Source: Escherichia phage APECc02
Strand: one strand, 5' to 3'
Sequence record: NC_041869.1
DNA length: 64,000 nucleotides
Shown: piece by piece, positions 502 through 35,993 of the stretch
Numbering within the stretch: position 1 is the first letter of the stretch
How the letters are laid out: every line of letters begins with the position of its first letter
Translations under genes and position numbers: made by a program
The notes under the pieces: model-generated
Told to the model about the DNA's origin: nothing
The model's input: the letters and a program-made list of their open reading frames with translations, nothing else
Databases searched by the model: none

Positions 502-2480
502 TCGTAAACAGTAATGAAACTAAAGCGGTACTAACCGGGAATATGGAGGTCACCAGGGGCTCAATTTCTCTGAACAAAGAGACTTTTGGGCTAATCATTA
601 AAGGGATTTACGAAGATAAGGTGCTGGCAAGCTGCCGTGAACCAATCTTCAATGCCGTGGACTCCCATGTTGAGTCTGGACGGGGTGATGTACCGATCAT
701 TATTCACTCTCCTACAGACCTTGAACCATACTTCTTTGTGCAGGACGTTGGATTGGGCATGTCAGAAGAGATGGTCCGCAACACTTTCATGAACCTCGGG
801 GAGTCAACCAAGCGCAACAGCAACGCTCTGGTAGGTAATAAAGGTGTTGGTTCAAAGGCTCCGTTCAGCATGGTGGACACTTTCGATGTTATCAGTGTGC
901 ACAATGGTGTTGAAAGCACATATCTATTGTTCTTGGATCAGGGTATCCCAAACGTTACCAAGATCCGCGAGCGGAAGACTGAAGAGCACAACGGGGTAAA
1001 AGTTCAGTTCCATGTTAAGAAAGAGCATGTCCTGAAATATCGCACTGCTATTGCATCGTGCTTACGCTATGCGAAGTTTCCGTTCATCGTCACCGATCCT
1101 ATGACCAGTAAGATGTTAGAAGGTGACAAGGTTGAGGCACAGTATCATTACGAGAAGGATGGCTGGAAAATGACCATCCTGAAAGGTTATACCAGTTCTG
1201 ATGAGAGCCGTGTTGTGATGGGTCACCAACCTTACCGCTCCAAGTTCCTGGAGACATTGACCGATTACCCTGCAATCTGCGTGGAAATTCCTATTGGGGA
1301 TTGCAATATTAACCCTGGGCGTGAATGGACCATAGAGGGCCATGACGACGGTGGATTCCAGGATCGCCTGGAGGCCTTTGTCAAAGAAGGTATACGTCTT
1401 CGCGGGGCAGAAGTTATTGCAGAACTGGAGACGGCAAAAACCTCCGCAGAAGCACGTGAAATGATGAAGAATAGTGGAGTGTTCGGACACATCTTCGGCA
1501 AAAACTTTATGTGGAACCGTTGGGAAGAAACAGGGCTTGGCGACTTAGGCGATTGTGAAATTTTCGCTGGCGGCTTAAATAAAGGCCGCATAGGCTATGC
1601 TCGTTACGGAAAGTCGGAGTTCTTACGAGGTGTATACCTTGTATTTAACGACGGAGATGGTAAATATAACCGAAATAAGTGTAACTACTTAAGCGAAATC
1701 ACCGGACGCAACGTTTTCTATTGCCGGAACACGGATCTGGTGAAAGAGTTTAAAGAGGCGGCACACCATCCGTTCTTTGCAGATACTGTCAAATTGTTAT
1801 CAGAGCTCCCTCGCCGACCTGCGAAGAAAGGTGAAACAAAAACTCATTACGAGCCAGGTTATTGGGTTAAAAAGCTTGAGAAGGATGGTTACTTCCGTCG
1901 TGAACGTATTACTAAGGCAGAGTTCAAGAAGATTAAGCACTGCATTCCTTATGAGGGTGATATCCAACGTGGAAGTTGTTGGCTGGGACAGCTGAGTAAC
2001 ATCTACCAGCAAAATTATGACCGTGTGCGTGCTGCACTCCAGATTCCTGAAGGTGAAGATCTGTACTTGGTATCAGAATCTCGTCTGCTTTGGACTGATC
2101 CTGATTGCCAGTATGTTACAGAGAAGAATGTGGAACATTTGTTGAAAGAGGATGCTTGGAAATTCTTACTGACTCGCGCAGCAAATGAAACTTCATATGA
2201 CAGCTTGTATAGACAATTAGGGAAAATTATCCCCATGCAGGATTTTGGAAATTATCGGCCACATTTCCACAAGTGGGAAGGTAACACCGCGTGGAAGCAC
2301 AGTGAGCTAAATCATCGTGCCAAAATCTTAATCGCCAACCGGGTTAAGTGCGGGAAGGCCTATATTGCAAGATTGGAAAAGAAATATCCACTTTTGAAGC
2401 ATGTGGGCTTGAAATATTGGGACACCCCTGCTATGATTGAATACCGTGAGCTGATCGATACAAAGAATAACATCAAATAA
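498..2480 (+). CDS. GHKL-family ATPase (MORC/Hsp90-like Bergerat fold), 660 aa
   Basis: N-box EPIFNAVDS, G1-box DVGLGM, G2-box GNKGVGSKAPFS in the first 150 residues; RBS AAGGAG upstream; remainder of protein unassigned. Confidence 0.6.
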   Translation: MIVNSNETKAVLTGNMEVTRGSISLNKETFGLIIKGIYEDKVLASCREPIFNAVDSHVESGRGDVPIIIHSPTDLEPYFFVQDVGLGMSEEMVRNTFMNLGESTKRNSNALVGNKGVGSKAPFSMVDTFDVISVHNGVESTYLLFLDQGIPNVTKIRERKTEEHNGVKVQFHVKKEHVLKYRTAIASCLRYAKFPFIVTDPMTSKMLEGDKVEAQYHYEKDGWKMTILKGYTSSDESRVVMGHQPYRSKFLETLTDYPAICVEIPIGDCNINPGREWTIEGHDDGGFQDRLEAFVKEGIRLRGAEVIAELETAKTSAEAREMMKNSGVFGHIFGKNFMWNRWEETGLGDLGDCEIFAGGLNKGRIGYARYGKSEFLRGVYLVFNDGDGKYNRNKCNYLSEITGRNVFYCRNTDLVKEFKEAAHHPFFADTVKLLSELPRRPAKKGETKTHYEPGYWVKKLEKDGYFRRERITKAEFKKIKHCIPYEGDIQRGSCWLGQLSNIYQQNYDRVRAALQIPEGEDLYLVSESRLLWTDPDCQYVTEKNVEHLLKEDAWKFLLTRAANETSYDSLYRQLGKIIPMQDFGNYRPHFHKWEGNTAWKHSELNHRAKILIANRVKCGKAYIARLEKKYPLLKHVGLKYWDTPAMIEYRELIDTKNNIK

Positions 2481-2490
2481 GGAGACCAAG

Positions 2491-3699
2491 ATGATTTTCA
2501 TCTACGAACATTTCAAAACCCGTAAAGAAGCACGAGACCGCCGTGCAGAACTTGAGAAGAAGGGTTTCACATGTGCCATTGAGAAAGGCGACACAACCTG
2601 GACACTGGCAGTTGGTGCCCCAGAGTTGTTCGATCCTGACCGTGACAGCGTCTGCTACACCCGTGAGGATTTTGAAACCCGCGAAGAGGCCCGTTTATTT
2701 CGATACGGTCTGGAAGATAACGGTAAGTACGCTATGATCTTAGATTTAGGCGAAGGTTCCGTTAAACGTTGGGGCGTGGTATACCCACTGTGTGTTGTTC
2801 ACGGTGTGGGGTTCACTGGAGTAGCAATCAAGTCAGAAGAACCTTTAGTAGAAGTCAAAGATCCGGTGCTGGAAGTGGTGAGTAGTGTGTCTCAGCAACA
2901 GACTCGAAGCATCGAACCTTTGGTAGTTATTTGCGGGGAACTCCTCCAGATCACCTGCAACGAAGGCATTTTTGAAATTCGCCGCAGCGAAAGTGAGGAA
3001 GTTTACCAGAAAGTCTTCGACCATATCTCTGTTCAGGAATATGATGAGGCAATTGGTGAAATCCTTGTCTGGCTGGAACGCAAGAATGAGTTCACCACAC
3101 TTGCAGACAACCTGATCATGAAAGATGGTAAGCTCTACTACTACGGTGTAGAGATGCGATCCACCATTGCAAAGAAAATTGAGAAAGATTATGCAGACGG
3201 AACACTGGATGACCGCTATGTGAAATTCCTCGTTCGCCTGCTACGCAATCCTTCTGCAAAATCTGTAAACATGCTCTACGACTTTATGCAGGCCAACGAT
3301 ATCCAGATTGCAGAAGATGGTCGAATCATTTGCTACAAAGGGGTTCAGTTTAACGGCAGCAAGTGGGTGGATTGGCACAGTGGTAAAGTCCCACAATACC
3401 AAGGTGCTTTTGTATCCATGCCTCGTAACTTTGTAGAGGATGATCCTGAAGCTGCGTGCTCCTATGGCTTACACTGCGCCAGCAAAGAGTATGCAAAGAG
3501 CTACGGCACTGTAATGACTGTTATGGTTGACCCTGCAGATGTGGTTAGTGTGCCATACCAACACAATAGCGCTAAGTGCCGTGCATGCCGCTATGAGATT
3601 GTGGTAGCTCCTCCGGAAGCACGCAAAGATGGAGACCCTATTGAATATGTAGTTGATCGTGACGGTAACACTATCGACATTCTTTACGAGGAGGCGTAA
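2491..3699 (+). CDS. hypothetical protein, 402 aa; two N-terminal SPOR/RRM-like repeats and Cys/His-rich C-terminus (tentative)
   Basis: ATG 11 nt after GHKL gene with AAGGAGA RBS; internal duplication of F.TR.EAR...L...G...W motif; C-terminal CSYGLHCASKEY and KCRACRY; function not assignable. Confidence 0.55.
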   Translation: MIFIYEHFKTRKEARDRRAELEKKGFTCAIEKGDTTWTLAVGAPELFDPDRDSVCYTREDFETREEARLFRYGLEDNGKYAMILDLGEGSVKRWGVVYPLCVVHGVGFTGVAIKSEEPLVEVKDPVLEVVSSVSQQQTRSIEPLVVICGELLQITCNEGIFEIRRSESEEVYQKVFDHISVQEYDEAIGEILVWLERKNEFTTLADNLIMKDGKLYYYGVEMRSTIAKKIEKDYADGTLDDRYVKFLVRLLRNPSAKSVNMLYDFMQANDIQIAEDGRIICYKGVQFNGSKWVDWHSGKVPQYQGAFVSMPRNFVEDDPEAACSYGLHCASKEYAKSYGTVMTVMVDPADVVSVPYQHNSAKCRACRYEIVVAPPEARKDGDPIEYVVDRDGNTIDILYEEA

Positions 3700-19856: not shown

Positions 19857-20282
19857 ATGATCTATGAAATGCCAAAACTGATTCGTGACGATGCCCAAAA
19901 CGCTCACACCATTATTATGGGCAAACGCATGGATATTATTTGTCATAAAGATTTCTGGGAAGGAAGTTACTTCACAGAGTATTTTGGTAAACTGGACAAT
20001 GGTCTGCTGATCCAGTTCTACACCGATGCGGAAAACAACATTCCCTGGGAGTTCGAAACTGAAGATGTCCATAAACTTTTCACCTTCCTCGGTATTAAGG
20101 TTAAGGCCAAGTTTGAAGAAGGTGAGTGCGACGATTGTGGATTTTATGAGGTAACAGATTTCTACCTTCCTAGCGGTAAGAACCTTTACTATGAAAGCCA
20201 CTTCGGTAACTCCAATATGCCACAGTGCTGGACTGAGTTTTTTGAAATTGCGGAAGAGGAGCTGGCTTACCGTGATTATTGA
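19857..20282 (+). CDS. hypothetical protein
   Basis: 141-aa ORF with AGGAGA RBS. Confidence 0.5.
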   Translation: MIYEMPKLIRDDAQNAHTIIMGKRMDIICHKDFWEGSYFTEYFGKLDNGLLIQFYTDAENNIPWEFETEDVHKLFTFLGIKVKAKFEEGECDDCGFYEVTDFYLPSGKNLYYESHFGNSNMPQCWTEFFEIAEEELAYRDY

Positions 20283-20730
20283 TACTGTAGAGGGAGATTT
20301 AATCTCCCTTTTTAAGAGCGGTGCTGGTCACCTGATCCACGGTTGTAACTGCTTCCACACAATGGGCAAGGGTATAGCAAAACAGATTGCCCGTGAGTTT
20401 CCTCAAGCACTGTCAGCCGACAAAGAGACTAGATACGGTTGCCTAAGTAAACTGGGTGCGTTATCCCGATGGGAGCACTTATCTCCGATAGGTATTGTCT
20501 ACGGAATCAATCTATATACCCAGTTCTACCCAGGACCTAATGCTGAGTATTTCTCAATCCTGAAAGGCTTTGAGCTAGTCAATGAAGTATTCAGCGGATC
20601 GACTTTACCATTCTACATCCCTAAGATCGGGTGCGGCATAGGCGGTTTGAAGTGGGAACACGTAGAGGACGTTATTAACCTTGCCACTTTCGACATAGAT
20701 ATTGTCGTGGTGGAGTACAAAAAGTGTTGA
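20272..20730 (+). CDS. macro-domain protein (putative ADP-ribose binding/hydrolase)
   Basis: motifs GDLISLF, HLIHGCNCFHTMGKGIAKQIAREF and IPKIGCGIGGL fit the macro-domain signature; probable GTG start at 20272 with GAGGAG 10 nt upstream (track ORF 20191..20730). Confidence 0.6.
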   Translation: MIIDTVEGDLISLFKSGAGHLIHGCNCFHTMGKGIAKQIAREFPQALSADKETRYGCLSKLGALSRWEHLSPIGIVYGINLYTQFYPGPNAEYFSILKGFELVNEVFSGSTLPFYIPKIGCGIGGLKWEHVEDVINLATFDIDIVVVEYKKC

Positions 20731-22041: not shown

Positions 22042-22231
22042 GCTTAAATCTGCATGGAACATCGCTGTGGGGGACGAGATCCGTATCCCAGGTGGAAAGA
22101 CCATTATGAAAATATCTCGTATCGAGTACGAAGGTGATCGTGTATTTCATATCTTTGCAGAAGATGGTCGAGAAATTTATATACAGGCAGGCTCTCACAT
22201 CTATATTCGTAAGAAAGGGGAGGACAAATGA
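22034..22231 (+). CDS. hypothetical protein
   Basis: ATG overlapping upstream stop with AAGGAAGG RBS; track ORF 21968..22231 trimmed. Confidence 0.45.
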   Translation: MFKLKSAWNIAVGDEIRIPGGKTIMKISRIEYEGDRVFHIFAEDGREIYIQAGSHIYIRKKGEDK

Positions 22232-22557
22232 CAGAGATCATCATTTCAACTGCAGGGTATGTATTCCTGACAATCATTGCGCTGGCTATTCTGGTGGCGG
22301 TGTATGGATTTGTTATCCTTCCTATCCTTGAGACATTTAGTTTGTGTCGGTGTTGGAGAAAAGCTTACGGTCCACAACCATGGAAGGACTGGCCCCACCT
22401 GGTGCGCTTAGCGTTCTCTTATGCTTACGATCACTCCAGTAGTGCATGCATAACCGGATACCACGCCCACAACTGGAGCTGGGAAGGGTTGAGGAAATGG
22501 AATGTTACAAAGACCATACCTCTGCGCATGTACAAACCTAAAAACAAAGACAGCTGA
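22228..22557 (+). CDS. hypothetical membrane protein
   Basis: N-terminal hydrophobic helix YVFLTIIALAILVAVYGFVILPIL; GGGGAGGA RBS. Confidence 0.5.
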   Translation: MTEIIISTAGYVFLTIIALAILVAVYGFVILPILETFSLCRCWRKAYGPQPWKDWPHLVRLAFSYAYDHSSSACITGYHAHNWSWEGLRKWNVTKTIPLRMYKPKNKDS

Positions 22558-22869
22558 TACTTGAAAATTCCTGGCATATCAAGTGTAAGGGGGATTTCTA
22601 AAATGGATTTCCTCCTTTTGATATTTCACCAGGCTGGATATTTTAAAATTCTTAGAAAATCAGAAAATGGATCGAAAACTAAAATGGATTTTTCAGAGTA
22701 GGCGCGACAAGCTGAATAACTCATCCTATCGTTTGCACCATATTCCAGGCCACCATTATAGATTTCCCACACATGCTAACCTCCCTCTACTAGAACTTCC
22801 TCCACTTGCCCTTGACCTTCTATGGTAACAATCTAACCACTATCTTGAAGTTGCGGTGCAGCTTTCCAG

Positions 22870-22980
22870 GTACTCGATCTACTTTTCATTTCAGGGCTTG
22901 GATTTTCTGAAAATTTTTCTCGATAAATTTCTCAGTACTCGATCTGTTTTTCGTTTTCTGAATCGGATTTTCTGGAAATC
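22870..22980. repeat. about 65-bp imperfect tandem duplication in AT-rich ORF-free region
   Basis: GTACTCGATCT at 22870 and 22935; GGATTTTCTG(A/G)AAAT at 22900 and 22965; AAATGGAT repeated at 22601, 22665, 22682, 23035. Confidence 0.6.
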
Positions 22981-23165
22981 GTTCCGGATCTCGACCTGAA
23001 ATTTTTGGGGACGAAATCGATTTTTCGTTTTCAGAAATGGATTTTTAAAATTTCTATATGGGAATATTTTATGGGATACTGTTTTATAGGAAATTGTTAC
23101 GGAGGGTAATTAGCATGCTAACTAAATTTATGAAATGCGAAAAGTTCTCATTTAGAATTTTGAAT

Positions 23166-23352
23166 GATAATCATTCTCGTTTGCAGAATAACGGGCACCC
23201 CCGGTGATTGTCTCCCGGCCCCTACTGCCCCAGCTTGTTATTATAGTAACACACAGGACAAAGAAAGCAAGAAGTTTTTGCATAAATTTTTAGACGATAA
23301 TGATAATCGTTCTCATTTTATGCAGCGCCCATCCCCGGTGGTTGTCTCCCCC
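23166..23352. repeat. two copies of about 55-bp direct repeat
   Basis: GATAATC.TTCTC.TTT..GCAG...CCCCGGTG.TTGTCTCCC at 23166 and 23302. Confidence 0.55.
23278..23307 (+). promoter_or_regulatory. sigma70-like promoter TTGCAT-N17/18-GATAAT
   Basis: good -35/-10 pair reading into the second direct repeat; no ORF with RBS follows for about 250 nt. Confidence 0.4.
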
Positions 23353-23572
23353 GTCACCGGTGCCTGCCGTCCTTTCGATAGGTATATTGTGCCACCTGGC
23401 GTGGCCGCTGTCAACACTTTTCAAAAAATTTTTCTAACCTGATGCGCTAACCGCTGCAACCTGGCGGGGCCAGCCTGGCAGGACCTAACTGACCAGGTAG
23501 GAGAGAATGAAGGCTTATAATCTGGTGGGCCTATGCTATAGGATAGGTAACAATTGAAGAGGAGGTACAAAA

Positions 23573-23695
23573 ATGAAAGGTAATATGATCCCCCTGGAAA
23601 ATGTAGCGATTAATGACGCTGAGGCTATCGCCATGGTTGAAAGGCTATGGCGGGAGCGTTGGAACATAAAGAAGAGTACGAAAAATGGTGGTTAA
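23573..23695 (+). CDS. small protein, 40 aa (below ORF-track cutoff)
   Basis: ATG 8 nt after strong RBS GAAGAGGAGG; MKGNMIPLENVAINDAEAIAMVERLWRERW... Confidence 0.35.
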   Translation: MKGNMIPLENVAINDAEAIAMVERLWRERWNIKKSTKNGG

Positions 23696-23832
23696 CCTGG
23701 CGGGGGCGGCGGCTGGAGAATTCTGCCCAAAAAATAATTTTAACTAATGGTTGACAGCTCGGACAGTTCTTGTTATTCTTATCCTCGCAAGGTGAACAAC
23801 ACCAAACTAATTAACAGAGAGGATAAAAAATC

Positions 23833-24030
23833 ATGAACGCCTACGGAATCAAAGTACGTCGCAGCACTCGCCAGGTGGTCACCGATCAAATGGTTTGCCA
23901 GGTGGACGTAACCATCAACAACGGGCAAGGCCTTTATAAATTTCGTCGCGGTCATAGCTATACCCTGCAACAGCTTAATCGTTGCGCCCTGACAAAAGGT
24001 CAGATCAACCACTGGTTTAATAAAAAATAA
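23833..24030 (+). CDS. hypothetical protein
   Basis: 65-aa ORF with AGAGAGGA RBS. Confidence 0.5.
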   Translation: MNAYGIKVRRSTRQVVTDQMVCQVDVTINNGQGLYKFRRGHSYTLQQLNRCALTKGQINHWFNKK

Positions 24031-24094: not shown

Positions 24095-24493
24095 ATGAAA
24101 ACCACAACCTTTAATTTTAATAATGCTGACTTCTCTTTTTCTGATGTTAAAAGCTGCCGCCGTGATCGCGGATTCTACAAGGCCTATAATCTGGTGGGCC
24201 TGGACGATGACAATAATTTGCACGAAGTAGCTGAGATCCGGTATTATGCCGCCGCCAGCGGTAACACTCATTACTGTGTATTTTGGATTCACGACAACAA
24301 GAACAATAAGTACGGTTATACTGGCGGCAAGGCGAGCGGTCACGGTTATGATAAAGCTAACGCAGCACTTGAGAGCGCATTAAATGCTATGGGGATCACT
24401 GCCGACGGCTGGATCTACGAAGAAGAGTTTTTGTCGGCACTTGCTGACCACCTAGGCTATAAAAAGCACATTGTAACATGCGCCCACGAATAA
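24095..24493 (+). CDS. hypothetical protein
   Basis: 132-aa ORF with AAGAGGA RBS. Confidence 0.5.
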   Translation: MKTTTFNFNNADFSFSDVKSCRRDRGFYKAYNLVGLDDDNNLHEVAEIRYYAAASGNTHYCVFWIHDNKNNKYGYTGGKASGHGYDKANAALESALNAMGITADGWIYEEEFLSALADHLGYKKHIVTCAHE

Positions 24494-32271: not shown

Positions 32272-32288
32272 TCCTTATTGACTAGAAA

Positions 32289-32315
32289 ACAGGGCTTGCA
32301 ATGGTCCTGTTTTTT
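32289..32315 (+). terminator. putative rho-independent terminator
   Basis: stem ACAGG/CCTGT around TTGCAATGGT loop followed by TTTTTT. Confidence 0.4.
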
Positions 32316-32399
32316 GTTATACTTATTCCACGGCAGGCACCTGGTGACGGGGGGAGACAACCACCGGGCCTGCCTGTCATATAAGAACTATAAAAACCG

Positions 32400-33394: not shown

Positions 33395-33420
33395 AGGGGC
33401 TTAAAGCCCCTTTCTTTTTG
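33395..33420 (+). terminator. rho-independent terminator
   Basis: hairpin AGGGGC-TTAAA-GCCCCT followed by TTCTTTTTG. Confidence 0.65.
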
Positions 33421-34028
33421 TCTCCTCTTTTCCTACCACAAATGGCCCCGCCTGGCAAATGGAATAATCAACAAGCCAGCAATTAACCCCACTGTACAAA
33501 CATACATATAAAATAACTATTGCATAATTTTTCATTGTGTGGTAGCAGGGCCATTTTTACACGTTTTTCCTTCCAAAATTGCACGTAATGCAGCATTTGC
33601 ACAAAATTTAACCTGATGCATATCTTCAATAGCTTGTCAACAACTAAAAATCTTTATAAGTCATACACTTACATAACTACAAAAGCGTTTTCTACGTGAA
33701 AAATCGAGTATAACTATAGCCGCCAGATCTCAGAATTTACGTACGCTCGCCATTCTATAGCCTGCTAAGCATTTATTCCAACCATAGAATAACGGAATAG
33801 TCAATACCTGCATAAAATAATTATTCGTGTAAACTGCATAACATAAATCGGCCCAGGTGTCAACATTTTTCGTAAACAGTCTGGAATTGTCACGTTAGGT
33901 TACCATAAGCAGAGAAATCTTTAGTCGTCTAATGTTTACTGTACGTTACTATACTAACTGAAATCATTAGATGACTAATAGAAAGATAAGAAATAATTAA
34001 CAATACAATTATTTTATCTGTAACAATA

Positions 34029-34205
34029 AGGCAACTATGCAAACGAATGGCATGGCGCGACGGAGTCGCGACATAATATAAAAGCAGTAACCATCACCCC
34101 CGTGATAGTTTGTCTGCAAACTATTAATCAGATCATAGTTGCCTTGTATTTAGTTAATCATGACATAACAAGCAAGGCAACTATAGATCTGCTAATAGTT
34201 GCCCT
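34029..34205. repeat. four copies of 11-mer AAGGCAACTAT in alternating orientation (candidate protein-binding sites)
   Basis: plus-orientation at 34029 and 34174, inverted at 34136 and 34195; 34135-34146/34173-34184 form a 12-bp perfect inverted repeat 26 bp apart. Confidence 0.6.
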
Positions 34206-34317
34206 GCTTTTATATTATGTCATAGAAACACCCGAAGGGGTGACCAAAGGTTACCTGGCATAGCCAGTGAAAGATTATTAACTTGCTAATCTTTATCATG
34301 CAAACGAATGGCATGGC
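34037..34317. repeat. 20-bp perfect direct repeat ATGCAAACGAATGGCATGGC
   Basis: copies at 34037-34056 and 34298-34317. Confidence 0.65.
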
Positions 34318-34338
34318 TTATCATTTCTGTGTAAATAG

Positions 34339-34390
34339 TCTATGCGTAAACTGTCAAGGCGTAAACAATCTATGCGTGAACAGTGAAACA
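34339..34390. repeat. short direct repeats TCTATGCGT(A/G)AAC and GCGTAAAC
   Basis: TCTATGCGTAAAC at 34339, GGCGTAAACA at 34359, TCTATGCGTGAAC at 34369. Confidence 0.5.
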
Positions 34391-34423
34391 TGAAATAATA
34401 ACAGTTGTTATTGTGTCATATTG

Positions 34424-34505
34424 TGCTGCAGCGTGTTGAGTATGTTTAAGGTGCCCAGTATGTCACCATTATGTCACTATTGTGTCATAGTGTCATAGTA
34501 TGTCA
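34424..34505. repeat. iteron-like array of TGTCA(C/T) pentamers at about 10-11 bp phasing
   Basis: TGTCA at 34424, 34461, 34472, 34483, 34491, 34501 (plus 34362, 34525). Confidence 0.6.
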
Positions 34506-35083
34506 GACAAGTTTTTCCCCTCTTTGTCAAGTGCTGCATGAAAAAATTTACAAGCTGGTATGGTAGCATTTTTGCGGCCTTGTTTACATTCAGTAATGTA
34601 TGTATAACCCTTGATGTGTGGGCGTTTAGACGTCTAGACGGTCAGAAGTCTGCAGGTCAATATCTAATCTATTGGCTGCTAACTATATCCCCCACAAATA
34701 ATAAGAAATATAATTGTTATGTGCGTAAACAGTAACTCATGTTATCAATCCCTGTATGGATCGCCAGTGGTGCGCATAATGGGTATTATGTTAAATTGCC
34801 CGTAATGATAACTATTCTCACAATGATAGGTATTCTCATTCACCCCCACAAGATAGGTTGCAAATGTTGTGCCACTGTGTGAACGGCCTAGCCTATTAAT
34901 TTGCCTCACTGCCTTGATATTTGAGAATTGTTATAAGAATGAGAAGTATTCCCATTTCGTCCGCCTGGCAGCACTCCTGTAGGTCCTGCAAGGACTCTAG
35001 CTGAAAGCTAGACCCTTCGGGCCTCCCTGTAGGTCAGGTCAAAATCGTGGTAGAATTGGGCCTGTTCAGATATTTCTGGCTGA

Positions 35084-35643
35084 CTCTTCAGGTCTGTGTG
35101 GGAAAAGCCAACCTCTCCGGCGGGGCAGGGGGTCATGACGGGAAAATTGCAGGTCAATTAAAAAATTTACGTGGTGTATGAAGCGCTCTTCAGGTAAGGC
35201 ATGTATTATGGGATGAAACCCTCTTCAGGCAATGATATTTGTGGGTGTGATATTTGCTGGAAAGCCAGATATGACGGGACTCCCGGCGGGGCAGGGGTAG
35301 TACAGACAGGGAAAATATGAGAATGTAGTTGGGGAAATTGATCAGACAGGTAGAGTATGGAATATGTTACAAGTATGTTAAATATGGAGGTTGAATATCT
35401 GTAGGATTTGTGTGTAAAATCAAAGACTTAAGGGGTGTTGTGGTATTTTCTATAAATAATTCAAGTTTAATAGGCAATATTTGTCTCTATCCGCTTTGTG
35501 TGGTAAACAGATTCAGATTAGATTGGTTTACAAGTGTATACATAATATACAAATTAAAGATACAAGAAACCCCCCTCCCCCCTTCGGCTACCATTCACCT
35601 TTTCCTCTGACTGGTACTTAAACACTTATTCAGACTCTTCAGG
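35084..35643. repeat. dispersed direct repeats CTCTTCAGG (x4), CCGGCGGGGCAGGGG (x2), CCTGTAGGTC (x2)
   Basis: CTCTTCAGG at 35084, 35186, 35221, 35635; CCGGCGGGGCAGGGG at 35117 and 35283, each followed by G-rich GGGAAAAT. Confidence 0.55.
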
Positions 35644-35993
35644 TTATCACCCATATATCATATGGCAGTGACTGGTGTCCTCCGGCCCCTCTTTCGTCAC
35701 CCGTCCGCTTCGCCATGCTAATGCCATAGCTAATGGTTCGGTTGTTCACCCTGTTCACTCAGGTGTATCTCTATACCCCTTCAAACCGAAGAGAACAGAA
35801 AACCCGAATTACTCGGTAAAAGAAAAGAGAAGAACTTAATTTTATCAGGATAGGCAAGAATGTCAAGGCATGACTGCTCACTAAACAAGCAAACAGTCAT
35901 GTGTGGGAGGTAAGTGATTGTGGTGGTAGGAAATTTAGTTGAAAGATGTGTTATAGGTGCTTCCAGCACTTTAGCCGGGCAGCTAATTGTGTG

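Follow-up and report, generated by a model that had tools for sequence, protein, structure and literature searches.

The 64,000-nucleotide stretch of Escherichia phage APECc02 DNA analyzed here (NC_041869.1; the window) comes from a Vequintavirus, an rV5-like phage with a genome of approximately 137 kb, and contains between positions 22,560 and 23,560 a kilobase without genes. This kilobase is a conserved non-coding control hub of rV5-like phages, and its disruption is barely tolerated. The homologous gap lies in synteny and bears no annotation in Certrevirus, Seunavirus, Mydovirus, Henunavirus, Serratia phages, and Stephanstirmvirinae, where it contains the same modules in identical order, and the conservation spans 2 phage subfamilies. 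Within the genus, the region 22870–23480 is nearly invariant whereas the adjacent fast-evolving spacer (22700–22865) contains no conserved element and is visibly the most divergent part of the region (ten-genome alignment, judged by eye). At the right edge, a 48-nt segment (23484–23531) is dispensable because some close relatives lack it, and outside the genus nothing is conserved beyond 23440. The region had no match among 5,426 E. coli genomes that could indicate the host as its source, and no tRNA or tmRNA remnants were found when looked for. Scanning our sequence collection with TCTTTACNNNTCTTTAC returned chance matches only, and the scan with CCGGTGRTTGTCTCCC was swamped by a coincidental match within a lambdoid capsid gene, the relevant entries being only L189, L202, L236, and L251. 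The original prediction had described the kilobase as ORF-free, AT-rich, and bearing GATC clusters. We indeed found no conserved ORF in it, although mechanical ORFs of up to 92 amino acids exist and some are annotated in relatives. The high AT content applies to positions 22500–23250 (GC content 0.36–0.40) but not to 23250–23550 (0.44–0.49). The GATC clusters did not hold: the kilobase contains 4 GATC sites versus a window-wide mean of 5.3 per kb, and those present belong to the repeat unit. Because this count is not above the window mean, GATC (Dam or SeqA) clustering was discarded as an origin signal.

On the left of the hub is an intrinsic terminator that ends the upstream plus-strand operon (22587–22626, plus strand; stem AAGGGGGA / TCCTCCTT followed by TTGATATTT; −14.9 kcal/mol, z −1.9). 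In relatives this terminator has AAGGAGGA, which replaces a G·U pair by A-U. Its loop contains the first copy of the motif AAATGGAT, which is also part of the left motif block (22595–22700), composed of GATATTT repeats and AAATGGAT at 22601, 22665, and 22682. With a further copy at 23035, these are 4 of only 5 occurrences of AAATGGAT on both strands of the 64 kb, in agreement with the four-fold recurrence originally reported. Positions 22637–22697 are nearly invariant among Vequintaviruses, and in Henunavirus and Certrevirus the homologous gap likewise has GATATTT and AAAATGGATTTTC at its left edge. To the right of the spacer, the tandem unit of approximately 65 bp that had been noticed before is present at 22863–22924 and 22928–22989 (62 nt, 73% identical, spacing 65), and it is followed by a third, more degenerate unit that occupies 22999–23045 and continues beyond (spacing 74). 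The divergence between the copies is too high for the 65-bp unit to be picked up by Tandem Repeats Finder. Altogether, positions 22860–23072 comprise 3 tandem iteron-like units of 65, 74, and approximately 74 bp that are 70–74% identical to each other and nearly invariant in the genus. Each of them contains ACTCGATCT (a decayed CTCGATCGAG palindrome), TTTTTCGTTTTC, and GGATTTTCTGGAAAT, and CR3, PVP-SE1, BIS47, ABPH49/Kashira, and pEa55 likewise have 3 units with the same parts. Between the iteron-like units and the Fur boxes described below lies an AT-rich, easily melted stretch (23040–23130) that is a candidate DNA unwinding element. Its segment 23040–23099 is 78% AT and constitutes the third least stable 60-mer in the 64-kb window (top 0.07% of positions).

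The right part of the hub contains the repeat of approximately 55 bp that the original prediction had pointed out (23163–23216 versus 23299–23350; 2 repeat families, 90% identity each). This repeat is a duplicated minus-strand cassette consisting of a σ70 promoter, a structured RNA of approximately 52 nt that begins at the predicted +1, the sequence AUUCUG, and a canonical Fur box. The promoter of the first cassette, P1 (23243–23270, minus strand), was read from the sequence and has a −35 element TTGCTT (23270–23265), a spacer of 16 nt, and the extended −10 element TGT-TACTAT (23248–23243), with a predicted start near 23236. It was not listed by the consensus promoter scan because its −35 matches at only 3 of 6 positions. 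In other genera the same position is occupied by TTGCAA, TTGATC, or TTGACC, 16–17 nt, and TATATT, TATTAT, or TATTCT; the hexamers are thus kept across genera while the spacers differ. The promoter of the second cassette, P2 (23386–23414, minus strand), consists of TTGACA (23414–23409), 17 nt, and TG-n-CACAAT (23391–23386); it matches the consensus at 10 of 12 positions in the scan, has the TG motif, and is invariant in the genus.

To describe the RNA that follows these promoters we used a covariance model, R1, built from 12 non-Vequintavirus sequences. R1 matched RNA1 (23184–23236, minus strand, approximately 52 nt) over its full length (42.8 bits, E 3e-8). The RNA1 5′ end, located at the predicted +1, is base-paired with the 3′ end; GAGACAAUCACC forms the apical loop, and the RNA is followed by AUUCUG. 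In its paralogue RNA2 (approximately 23320–23379, minus strand), R1 matched the core at 23330–23355 only (16.1 bits, E 0.1). RNA2 forms an apical hairpin CCGGUG...CACCGG around GAGACAAC with the closing pairs GCAG/CUGC (−20.1 kcal/mol, z −2.1), and it is nearly identical to a third family member across ACGGCAGGCACC.GGUGACGGGGGAGACAACCACCGGG. This third member, RNA3, is located outside the hub (32330–32384, plus strand; R1 match at 32336–32378, 26.8 bits, E 3e-4; −25.6 kcal/mol, z −3.0), behind its own promoter (32296–32323, plus strand; TTGCAA, 16 nt, TATACT), the −35 of which sits in the loop of the terminator of the upstream gene (z −5.9). RNA3-like copies occur at the same relative place, on the strand opposite to the hub copy, in Mydovirus and in a Henunavirus-like contig, and each is followed by a Fur-like box. 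A search of the remaining 75 kb of the sister genome ECML-10 with R1 gave no match.

Across the 12 sequences, base pairing in the closing helix is possible in 70 of 72 cells when the minus strand is read and in 61 of 72 when the plus strand is read. Among the individual pairs, 5 sequences have GC, 4 have AU, and 1 has GU at 3-49; 7 have GU and 5 have GC at 4-48; and 8 have GC, 3 have GU, and 1 has AU at 6-46. These G·U pairs and compensatory changes assign the RNA to the minus strand. In all genera other than Vequintavirus, the helix begins at the predicted +1, and the window copy has a 2-nt bulge right after +1. RNA1 is approximately 40% G, with runs of GGGG, GGGG, GGG, and GGGGG, and its fold in the window does not exceed that of shuffled sequences in stability (z +0.1 to +0.7). 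No intrinsic terminator or U-run was found after the RNAs, in which the closing helix is followed by AUUCUG and the Fur box; they lack the 3′-terminal Rho-independent terminator and U-tail that characterize trans-acting sRNAs of the Hfq type. The window had no match in Rfam 15 at gathering thresholds, the matches in 22300–24000 at E values up to 10 were at chance level, and 4 homologous loci gave nothing at E values up to 1. A literature search on small RNAs of Vequintavirinae returned nothing relevant. RNA1, RNA2, and RNA3 are members of a previously undescribed RNA family with 3 copies per genome. A second RNA-like element that is conserved in other genera (CTACCGGCGAT...GGGGTGGCG) is absent from the window (nhmmer). 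The phage small RNA put forward in the original prediction thus holds in altered form, as a structured RNA backed by a covariance model and by a covarying helix, but this RNA is on the minus strand, behind P1 and P2, and does not originate from the plus-strand promoter at 23278 that had been proposed.

The palindromes that follow RNA1 and RNA2 match the canonical Fur-box consensus, which makes them putative Fur operators, and each is placed directly after its RNA at a fixed distance. Fur box 1 (23163–23181, AATGATAATCATTCTCGTT) has 2 mismatches to the 9-1-9 consensus AATGAGAATCATTCTCATT, as has Fur box 2 (23299–23317, AATGATAATCGTTCTCATT), and for each 0.04 such sites are expected in the window. 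In the E. coli 19-mer frame (23296–23314, GATAATGATAATCGTTCTC), Fur box 2 matches GATAATGATAATCATTATC at 17 of 19 positions (0.01 expected). The 9-1-9 consensus is that of the Xanthomonas Fur box (PMC1790865), and similar Fur boxes are present in A. baumannii (PMC3055841). A degenerate Fur-like box (AATGCGAAAAGTTCTCATT, 4 mismatches to the 9-1-9 consensus) is located at 23134–23152. Its center lies 29 bp from that of Fur box 1, a box-to-box spacing that is identical in 6 genera, and the homologous loci contain 1 to 4 Fur-like boxes each. As in the iron regulons of gamma-proteobacteria (GATAATGATAATCATTATC; 9-1-9 AATGAgAATcATTctCATT; PMC1790865, PMC3055841), the boxes are palindromic with 0–2 mismatches, occur in arrays, and overlap plus-strand promoter-like hexamers. 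In contrast to those of the regulons, they are found in a virulent phage, have an exact spacing of 29 bp, are not upstream of an iron-related gene, and directly follow a small RNA gene on the other strand. Our literature search found no report of Fur boxes in rV5, T5, or virulent phages. We also considered that the palindromes could act as RNA hairpins or terminators, which was rejected because changes in one half-site occur independently of the other and are not compensated, and because the palindromes are not followed by a U-run.

Fur box 2 covers the −10 element of the candidate plus-strand promoter that the original prediction had described as TTGCAT-N17-GATAAT (23278–23307). Both hexamers exist (TTGCAT at 23278–23283 and GATAAT at 23302–23307), but the spacer is 18 nt instead of 17, and a second GATAAT is present at 23296–23301. 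Fur box 1 fills the spacer of a similar sequence, TTGAAT-18-CAGAAT. Relative to the better-supported minus-strand promoters, the Fur boxes are at approximately +60. If real and active, the promoter at 23278 would be convergent with P2, its transcript would be antisense to RNA2, and it would be repressed by Fur. This promoter is kept in the genus, but the entire stretch is invariant there and its conservation is not discriminating. In cassette 1, the equivalent −10-like sequence (xxGAAT) lacks the key A in several genera (CGGAAT, CTGAAT).

The functional importance of the hub can be judged from published transposon data obtained by HIDEN-SEQ on the sister phage Bas54 (bioRxiv 10.1101/2025.11.20.689424, Extended Data Table 8). 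In that study, bas54_0101, which corresponds to positions 23005–23109 of the window, was hit at 0 of 11 TA sites and called "Essential", and bas54_0102 (23164–23437) was hit at 5 of 15 sites and assigned a "Strong fitness defect" (bioRxiv 10.1101/2025.11.20.689424). The 11 insertion-free TA sites map to 23046–23107, and the span of bas54_0102 includes both RNA1 and RNA2; polar effects of the inserted cassette on downstream early genes may contribute to its defect. In the stretch of the iteron-like units, bas54_0100 (22853–22999) was hit at 1 of 3 TA sites, and the RNA3 region was hit at 4 of 8, which indicates that insertions are tolerated there (bioRxiv 10.1101/2025.11.20.689424). Most of the flanking genes (bas54_0088-0099 and 0103-0109) were hit at 86%–100% of their sites, the exception being bas54_0095 with 73% and reduced fitness (bioRxiv 10.1101/2025.11.20.689424). 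The most insertion-intolerant part of the hub is thus located downstream of the RNAs, as expected of a cis-acting DNA element and not of a trans-acting RNA. Judged by synteny, the other insertion-free non-coding region of the window (33.4–36 kb) is the counterpart of the direct terminal repeat that has been mapped in phage KPP-1. The terminal-repeat region of KPP-1 has no nucleotide similarity to the window, so this assignment of the terminus rests on synteny. The terminal repeat of this related phage is 514 bp long and lies approximately 10.5 kb from the hub. With the region at 33.4–36 kb being the terminal repeat by synteny, it would not account for the origin.

Phage T7 initiates at a primary origin in which the tandem promoters 1.1A and 1.1B are followed by an AT-rich region, and the T4 origins ori(uvsY) and ori(34) combine a promoter with an unwinding element at which an R-loop serves as primer. 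Our preferred, though tentative, reading is that the hub is most likely a transcription-activated replication origin with Fur boxes, of this "promoter plus downstream unwinding element" kind. On the minus strand, from right to left, P2 and P1 are each followed by a G-rich leader RNA of approximately 52–60 nt and a Fur box, and then come the AT-rich stretch and the 3 iteron-like units. Both promoters are therefore aimed into the adjacent AT-rich segment at 23040–23099. According to this model, host RNA polymerase would fire leftwards from P2 and P1, and the transcript, or transcription itself, would open the AT-rich stretch or prime synthesis there. The iterons would bind a phage protein that organizes the site, and Fur, positioned between the promoters and the AT-rich stretch, would confer an iron response or block read-through. 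The anatomy of the hub, the strand and family membership of its RNAs, the agreement of the palindromes with the Fur-box consensus, the conservation, the low duplex stability, and the insertion intolerance in the sister phage are established by the present analysis or by earlier publications, and we infer the start and end points of the transcripts, the binding of Fur, and the initiation of replication at the hub. An origin-like locus had been among the original predictions. The GATC argument for it has fallen away, but the conserved iteron-like units, the destabilized AT-rich stretch, the promoters that point into it, and the intolerance to insertions argue in its favor. The likeness to the T7 and T4 origins lies in 2 tandem promoters directed at a short stretch that is very AT-rich and melts easily, in a G-rich transcript, and in a non-coding, insertion-intolerant element among early genes. 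Unlike in these origins, the promoters of the hub are of the host σ70 type, the transcripts start with a conserved, covarying structured RNA, Fur boxes separate the promoters from the AT-rich stretch, 3 long iteron-like units follow it, and initiation is predicted.

Iteron-type origins such as lambda ori and those of plasmids P1 and R6K, with iterons of approximately 20 bp, provide a second comparison. The hub shares with them direct repeats adjoining an AT-rich region, a presumed requirement for nearby transcription, and bent A/T tracts, but its units are 65–74 bp long, there are only 3 of them, and no recognizable initiator gene is adjacent. No Pfam domain was found in the neighboring ORFs, their PHROGs are of unknown function, and none of them is recognizable as an initiator gene. 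No DnaA box (TTWTNCACA) was found at 22400–23800 of the window, and a perfect one (TGTGGATAA) is present in the homologous gap of ABPH49 and Kashira; the hub thus lacks both a recognizable adjacent initiator gene and the DnaA boxes of an iteron-type origin. The cumulative GC skew shows a small dip over 22.5–23.0 kb and no sustained reversal.

An unlikely, although better supported than the remaining ones, alternative to the origin is that the hub is a module with regulatory functions only. The 3 RNAs (RNA1, RNA2, and RNA3) would act in trans or as cis-antisense sRNAs, with their synthesis tied to host iron via the adjacent Fur boxes, the iterons would be operators for a phage regulator, and the locus would have no role in replication. 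Fur might in this case repress the convergent plus-strand promoter or block read-through. As regards the RNAs themselves, promoter-proximal structured RNAs already known include the put antitermination RNAs of HK022 and, as a primer, RNA II of ColE1. Like these, the hub RNA is located at or near the +1 of an early promoter, has a conserved structure, and exists in several copies behind different promoters. It differs in having no sequence or Rfam relationship to them, in consisting of a single closed hairpin with an invariant loop where put has 2 stem-loops, and in that 2 of the 3 copies of the family have no downstream genes on their own strand. The regulatory module would explain why the promoter-RNA-AUUCUG-Fur box cassette recurs with fixed spacing at independent loci in several genera, and why the invariant loop GAGACAAnCACC resembles a recognition or seed sequence. 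However, no convincing target emerged: complements of this loop occur in the window at chance level (5 with 2 mismatches or fewer versus 2.2 expected), 3 of them being the genes of the RNAs. At 32.3 kb, RNA3 is not accompanied by iterons, which implies a function of the RNA family that is independent of an origin and counts against the origin reading. Against a regulatory module, insertions are tolerated in the RNA3 region. Fur boxes normally overlap promoters, and the plus-strand promoter-like sequences over boxes 2 and 1 would be in keeping with this, but the one in cassette 1 loses its key A in several genera, as described above. Finally, the strong fitness defect of bas54_0102 would fit a function of the 2 RNAs it contains, but the stretch in which none of the 11 TA sites was hit is outside and downstream of them, and the RNAs have no Rho-independent terminator or U-tail.

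Less probable still is that the hub serves as a docking site for host factors similar to the "injection stop" of T5, in which the phage DNA would be held during entry or replication by Fur boxes (in relatives also by DnaA and LexA boxes) arrayed on curved, AT-rich DNA, or as a decoy that would titrate Fur and de-repress host iron uptake for phage DNA synthesis. The sequence at 22918–22927 (TCGATAAATT), which we take to be an H-NS nucleation motif, would suit such a site. In T5, Repeat Region 3 of the first-step-transfer DNA is the "injection stop signal" region, and for more than 50 years the explanation of its repeats and palindromes has not gone beyond a descriptive model (Davison, bioRxiv 10.1101/866236). 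Like the hub, it is an untranslated region of approximately 1–1.6 kb packed with direct repeats and palindromes at approximately 10 kb from the genome end. A blastn search with the Fur-box array of CR3 had hits in T5-like phages, in the untranslated region where their terminal repeat ends on the inner side. Reading this region in chee24 revealed a perfect LexA box, 5–6 Fur-like boxes, the DnaA box TTATCCACA in 2 copies, and the shared module of palindrome, AUUCU, and G-rich hairpin. The distances also agree, the hub being approximately 10.5–12 kb from the probable genome end and the T5 region 9.2–10.4 kb from its own, and extra Fur-like boxes are present in the terminal non-coding region of the window (34804, 34822, and 34938) and in the terminal repeat region of KPP-1. 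The origins of T5 have been mapped near the middle of the genome (Davison, bioRxiv 10.1101/866236), and the presence of a homologous Fur-box/hairpin module in the injection-stop region of T5-like phages counts against the origin reading of the hub. The 2 regions differ, however, in several aspects: T5-like phages have approximately 9 copies of the iteron TGTCGGATTTGCACA, paired DnaA boxes, and a LexA box, their region is inside a 10-kb terminal repeat, and a nearby minus-strand promoter is not evident there. The window contains neither paired DnaA boxes nor DRD repeats nor a location in a long terminal repeat. The T5-like hairpin has no match to R1, and the T5 palindromes have not been described as Fur boxes. 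Moreover, two-step injection is not known for rV5-like phages, and the function of the T5 region is itself hypothesized. A decoy would not need fixed RNA spacing, 3 iterons, or covarying RNA helices, and would be unlikely to be essential in rich, iron-replete medium.

The possibility that the plus-strand promoter at 23278 drives a functional non-coding RNA of approximately 250 nt (23315–23560), as originally predicted, appears improbable to us. A promoter-like sequence does exist and is kept in the genus, no ORF with a ribosome-binding site follows until 23573, and the plus-strand fold of 23315–23385 is marginally better than that of shuffled sequences (z −1.3). However, its −35 matches at only 3 of 6 positions, and its −10 is part of a Fur box, so that the promoter would be repressed in iron-replete cells. 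The covarying helix needs G·U pairs that form on the minus strand only, the 23484–23531 part is missing from several close relatives, the sequence beyond 23440 is not conserved outside the genus, and Rfam offers no match. Least probable is that the annotated small ORFs (23005–23109, 34 amino acids; 23164–23442, 92 amino acids) encode proteins whose disruption causes the transposon growth defects: they are annotated in many records, a PHROG family exists, and they carry the "Essential" and "Strong fitness defect" calls of the transposon study (bioRxiv 10.1101/2025.11.20.689424), but frameshifting indels break the frames among genomes that are 92%–97% identical (a 1-nt deletion at 23348 in rV5_ev147, and an A-run at 23423–23434 of variable length), the 34-amino acid ORF has a TTG start, no ribosome-binding site, and in 6 relatives an in-frame TAG that shortens it, the annotation is inconsistent between records, and other genera have homologous sequence with 80%–90% nucleotide identity yet no ORF.

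The transcription-activated origin remains our preferred reading of the hub. Beyond it, it is possible, if less likely than not, that Vequintavirinae (rV5-like), Stephanstirmvirinae (phAPEC8-like), and Demerecviridae (T5-like) share conserved arrays of host Fur operators, coupled in the first 2 groups to the new structured RNA at +1. An essential early function, either origin firing or the early program, would then be wired to host iron, or Fur would be titrated during replication, and the injection-stop palindromes of T5 would be Fur boxes. To our knowledge, no replication start has been mapped in rV5-like phages. Because of their broad host range, these phages are in wide use as candidates for therapy and biocontrol, and the hub provides a small and concrete candidate for an essential cis-acting element. 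The results also offer a different interpretation, as non-coding DNA and RNA, of 2 entries that count as "essential hypothetical genes" in a published essentiality map, and link the rV5 hub to the injection-stop region of T5. Judged by sequence, genomes of virulent phages have canonical Fur operators as one of their conserved features. If Fur truly binds to them, rV5-like phages would be unusual among lytic phages in sensing the iron status of the host at an essential locus.

A megablast search with 22400-23800 matched 120 phage records, 102 of them with query coverage of 80% or more and identities of 85-97%; because all 102 are rV5-like myophages of ~137 kb (MaxTheCat, ECML-10, FFH2 and rV5 among them), we assigned the window to Vequintavirus. 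The gene-poor kilobase under study (the hub, ~22560-23560) belongs to an extended arm of small early genes on the plus strand, where its neighbours are a 109-aa ORF (22228-22557) on one side and a small ORF at 23573 on the other; in related records it is left blank or annotated with differing short 'hypothetical proteins'. Over the hub region, 16 GenBank records named 'Campylobacter phage' with C. jejuni as host (MG065635-MG065677) share 92-97% identity with E. coli rV5-like phages, probably a wrong host or name assignment, and 'Acinetobacter phage ABPH49' is near-identical to Serratia phage Kashira. Among the early genes, a 179-aa ORF (20191-20730) matches the Macro domain (PF01661, E 3.5e-6); its product may bind or hydrolyse ADP-ribose.

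As originally predicted, the hub lacks convincing ORFs. Comparing ten genomes (85-97% identical), we found a 92-aa ORF broken by a 1-nt deletion (23348) and an A-run of changing length (23423-23434), a 34-aa ORF broken by an acquired in-frame stop, and a 48-nt block (23484-23531) variably present or absent; judged by this comparison, the region is non-coding. The repeats described for it were also recovered: two copies of a 62-nt unit are spaced 65 bp apart and share 73% identity, AAATGGAT has four copies in the hub and just one more across the 64 kb (both strands counted), and the 55-bp repeat (23163-23216 versus 23299-23350) comprises two blocks at 90% identity. A third, more degenerate unit lies 74 bp beyond the second (three iteron-like units, 22860-23072). 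The proposed AT-richness holds for 22500-23250 but not from 23250 on, where GC is 0.44-0.49, and the proposed GATC clusters were not seen, the kilobase having 4 GATC sites without enrichment over the 5.3 per kb of the window. GATC is common across the entire window (339 sites, versus 3.9 per kb expected at equal base use). Several minor sequence features were also observed. AAGGCTTATAATCTGGTGGGCC (23508-23530, in the dispensable 48-nt block) is a near-repeat of AAGGCCTATAATCTGGTGGGCC (24178-24200, within gene 24095-24493) and looks like a gene-duplication scrap or recombination scar; ACCTGGCGGGGCC-type sequences are repeated at 23393, 23458 and 23694; and a 30-nt inverted repeat, 70% complementary, encloses the three tandem units (22772-22801 CATGCTAACCTCCCTC / 23088-23117 GAGGGTAATTAGCATG), its right arm resembling the TTAGCAGGCTAA inverted repeat of T5-like phages. 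TCGATAAATT (22918-22927), between iteron-like units 1 and 2 and kept across the genus, exactly matches the high-affinity H-NS nucleation motif.

Within the genus, 22870-23480 is nearly invariant whereas the adjoining 22700-22865 is visibly far more divergent, which indicates strong selection on non-coding sequence. Outside the genus, sensitive blastn recognised only ~23134-23209 (80-90% identity), in Klebsiella, Salmonella (PVP-SE1), Cronobacter (CR3), Pectobacterium, Serratia and Erwinia phages and in Stephanstirmvirinae, always inside an unannotated gap of 0.7-1 kb. All homologous gaps that were read have the same module order: short repeats of the GATATTT and AAATGG types; a variable spacer; three tandem units of 60-75 bp with a GATC-centred palindrome CTCGATCGAG, T-rich tracts and often GCGAAAAAATTTTTT; 1-4 palindromes AAATGAGAATCATTCTCATTT; a conserved G+C-rich stretch; and a minus-strand sigma-70 promoter directed back at these five modules. 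All genera except Vequintavirus also carry a second conserved element of ~100 nt, an RNA encoded on the minus strand and located between P1 (the promoter at 23243-23270, minus strand, in the window) and an additional minus-strand promoter. In homologous loci L003 to L006 it occupies plus-strand coordinates 2640-2800, 2620-2760, 2650-2790 and 2690-2800, respectively, with the layout ...ACGCCACCCCACGGCG..GGCGGGGCUAAC..[variable hairpin]..GGAAGGUGGAUCGCCGGUAG. In two lineages its hairpin loop CCCC and the downstream GGGG have become CCAA and UUGG together, a joint change that suggests a pseudoknot; the element had no Rfam match, and nhmmer did not find it in the window.

From their sequence, the hub palindromes are Fur boxes that would bind Fur. 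Positions 23296-23314 agree with the E. coli Fur consensus GATAATGATAATCATTATC at 17 of 19 positions, the sole site of such quality in 64 kb (0.01 expected). The 9-1-9 phage consensus AATGAGAATCATTCTCATT is identical letter by letter to the Xanthomonas campestris Fur box (PMC1790865) and also agrees with the Fur boxes listed for A. baumannii (PMC3055841) and Listeria; sites with at most three mismatches to it occur in the window at 23163 (Fur box 1), 23299 (Fur box 2) and 34938 (0.04 expected). Loci of the different genera hold 1-4 boxes each; in six genera the distance between successive boxes is exactly 29 bp, as it is for 23134/23163 of the window. The half-sites change independently, without compensation, as protein-binding sites do, and we therefore rejected RNA hairpins as an explanation of the palindromes.

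The conserved G+C-rich stretch corresponds to a small RNA encoded on the minus strand. Every non-Vequintavirus genus has a minus-strand promoter with its hexamers kept and a variable spacer (TTGCAA, TTGATC, TTGCTT or TTGACC; 16-17 nt; TATATT, TATTAT or TATTCT). A helix starts 6 nt past the -10, its first 6-8 nt pairing with the segment immediately before AUUCUG and the Fur box. In an alignment of 12 sequences, all from these other genera and none from Vequintavirus, closing-helix pair 3-49 is GC in 5, AU in 4 and GU in 1, pair 4-48 is GU in 7 and GC in 5, and pair 6-46 is GC in 8, GU in 3 and AU in 1. RNAalifold recovered this helix independently. Of 72 cells, 70 pair on the minus strand; on the plus strand G.U pairs turn into A.C, which lowers the count to 61. 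The covariation score was higher than in 494 of 500 shuffles and in all slid controls: a modest but consistent signal. The apical stem differs by genus (CCGG/CCGG, UCG/CGA, GCG/CGC, GGGG/CCCC) around an invariant loop GAGACAAnCACC; two Certrevirus sequences have an inner-stem T.G that favours the plus strand. A covariance model derived from the 12 sequences matched the window at RNA1 (23184-23236, minus strand, full length; 42.8 bits, E 3e-8), RNA3 (32336-32378, plus strand; 26.8 bits, E 3e-4) and the core of RNA2 in the second repeat copy (23330-23355, minus strand; 16.1 bits, E 0.1). Since it had no match in the remaining 75 kb of the ECML-10 genome, there are three members per genome; they belong to no Rfam family. 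RNA1 is thermodynamically unexceptional (z +0.1 to +0.7 versus shuffles). RNA2 has a good promoter, P2 (23414-23386, minus strand; TTGACA, 17 nt, TG-n-CACAAT), and no terminator was found downstream of the RNAs. RNA3 (32330-32384) folds strongly (z -3.0) and starts 7 nt past TATACT, the -35 of its promoter being located in the terminator loop of the preceding gene. Such compact terminator-promoter overlaps (32283-32323; L003 ~2590-2640 and homologues) take two forms, one with the next promoter's -35 hexamer within the preceding terminator's loop, the other with the promoter spacer filled by the terminator hairpin and the -10 also serving as U-tract. Mydovirus and a Henunavirus-like contig carry a second RNA copy 7-8 kb away from the hub; it is on the opposite strand and again has a Fur-like box after it. 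These recurring copies indicate that promoter, RNA, AUUCUG and Fur box form a conserved cassette, and what was described as the 55-bp repeat is a tandem pair of these cassettes. Covariation among homologues thus bears out a structured small RNA, but on the minus strand and not the plus strand.

For the sister phage Bas54/MaxBurger, which is 92% identical over the hub, a published transposon-insertion map treats the hub's dubious ORFs as genes (bioRxiv 10.1101/2025.11.20.689424); we transferred its gene coordinates to the window by mapping. In that study, insertions hit 1 of 3 TA sites in bas54_0100 (22853-22999; called NA), 0 of 11 in bas54_0101 (23005-23109; Essential) and 5 of 15 in bas54_0102 (23164-23437, containing RNA1 and RNA2; Strong fitness defect), the last with ~13 mean reads versus ~200 in its neighbours. 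Most of the 12 genes before and 7 after had 86-100% of TA sites hit (Non-essential or Intermediate), with bas54_0095 as the flank exception (73%, reduced fitness), and bas54_0130, in the RNA3 region at ~32.3 kb, had 4 of 8 (Intermediate). This intolerance shows that the hub is functionally important and, because the ORFs are not real, we assign the importance to DNA or RNA elements. It is greatest in the AT-rich stretch downstream of the RNAs; 23040-23099 is 78% AT and the third least stable 60-mer in the whole window. The comment of the map's authors is limited to another insertion-free region, ~2 kb between convergent genes, which corresponds to 33.4-36 kb of the window. There, 33400-35990 forms a second, larger ORF-free region (~2.5 kb) at the convergence of the plus- and minus-strand gene arms. 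The window's least stable DNA (33968, 35503) is found in this region, along with numerous short repeats (TGTCA, ATGTCA) and three Fur-like boxes (34804, 34822 and 34938). The direct terminal repeat of KPP-1 has been mapped (514 bp; PMC9862379), and in a Mydovirus contig it is separated by 3.2 kb from the second RNA copy and by 10.5 kb from the hub, distances that place its counterpart in the window at 33.4-36 kb. By this synteny 33400-35990 probably holds the genome termini, and the other essential non-coding region is accounted for.

Our best reading of the hub, held tentatively, is an origin activated by transcription, similar in kind to the T7 primary origin or T4 oriF/oriG, for which we infer initiation, Fur binding and transcript ends. 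Taken together, the promoters, the meltable stretch, the iteron-like units and the conserved order fit it better than any other reading. Two tandem promoters would fire into a G-rich leader, with the easily melted, insertion-intolerant stretch downstream of it and the three iteron-like units forming part of the origin; the module order is conserved across two subfamilies. However, an initiator gene is not evident, the window's own region has no DnaA box, RNA3 has no iterons beside it, and the related T5 module lies away from any mapped origin. The 'second origin-like locus' of the original prediction is retained in this form, without the GATC clusters. A purely regulatory small-RNA module linked to Fur is unlikely; the cassettes join RNA and Fur box, and the most insertion-intolerant DNA lies outside the RNAs.

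The Fur-box array of CR3 has matches in T5-like phages, in untranslated sequence where the left terminal repeat has its inner end. As read from sequence, the injection-stop region of T5-like chee24 (1860-3060 of its retrieved locus, L140) contains nine TGTCGGATTTGCACA repeats, 5-6 Fur-like boxes, two TTATCCACA boxes (known DnaA boxes), an adjoining perfect LexA box TACTGTATAAATATACAGTA (~2783), the inverted repeat TTAGCCTGCTAA / TTAGCAGGCTAA, which has its window counterpart ATTAGCATGCTAAC at 23109-23122, and a AAATGAGAATCATTCTCATTTGAGAATT-GGGGGC...GCCCCC module. Davison lists the palindromes and DnaA boxes of this region and leaves Fur and LexA sites unmentioned (bioRxiv 10.1101/866236). That the hub is likewise an injection-stop-like region, docking host factors or acting as a Fur decoy, we consider improbable.

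The plus-strand promoter proposed to drive a non-coding RNA exists as sequence (TTGCAT at 23278 and GATAAT), but its spacer is 18 nt and not 17, its -35 agrees at only 3 of 6 positions, and its -10 sits inside Fur box 2. If active, it would be subject to repression by Fur, would converge with P2 and would read antisense to RNA2. The analogous TTGAAT-18-CAGAAT at cassette 1 is not preserved as a promoter in other genera (CGGAAT, CTGAAT), so a plus-strand promoter is possible but is not the conserved feature. Upstream plus-strand transcription would stop at a predicted terminator (22587-22626), the stem of which is supported by a G.U to A-U change in relatives. A plus-strand RNA as the product of the hub is hence very doubtful, and real small proteins, annotated in some records and interrupted among the ten genomes, are scarcely credible.

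Our literature search found no description of Fur boxes in virulent phage genomes, of a small RNA of Vequintavirinae or of an origin for rV5-like phages. The parts of the hub are of known kinds: a Fur operator, a promoter-proximal structured RNA, iterons and an unwinding element. What is new is that these parts are combined and that they occur at a phage locus with so little tolerance of disruption.
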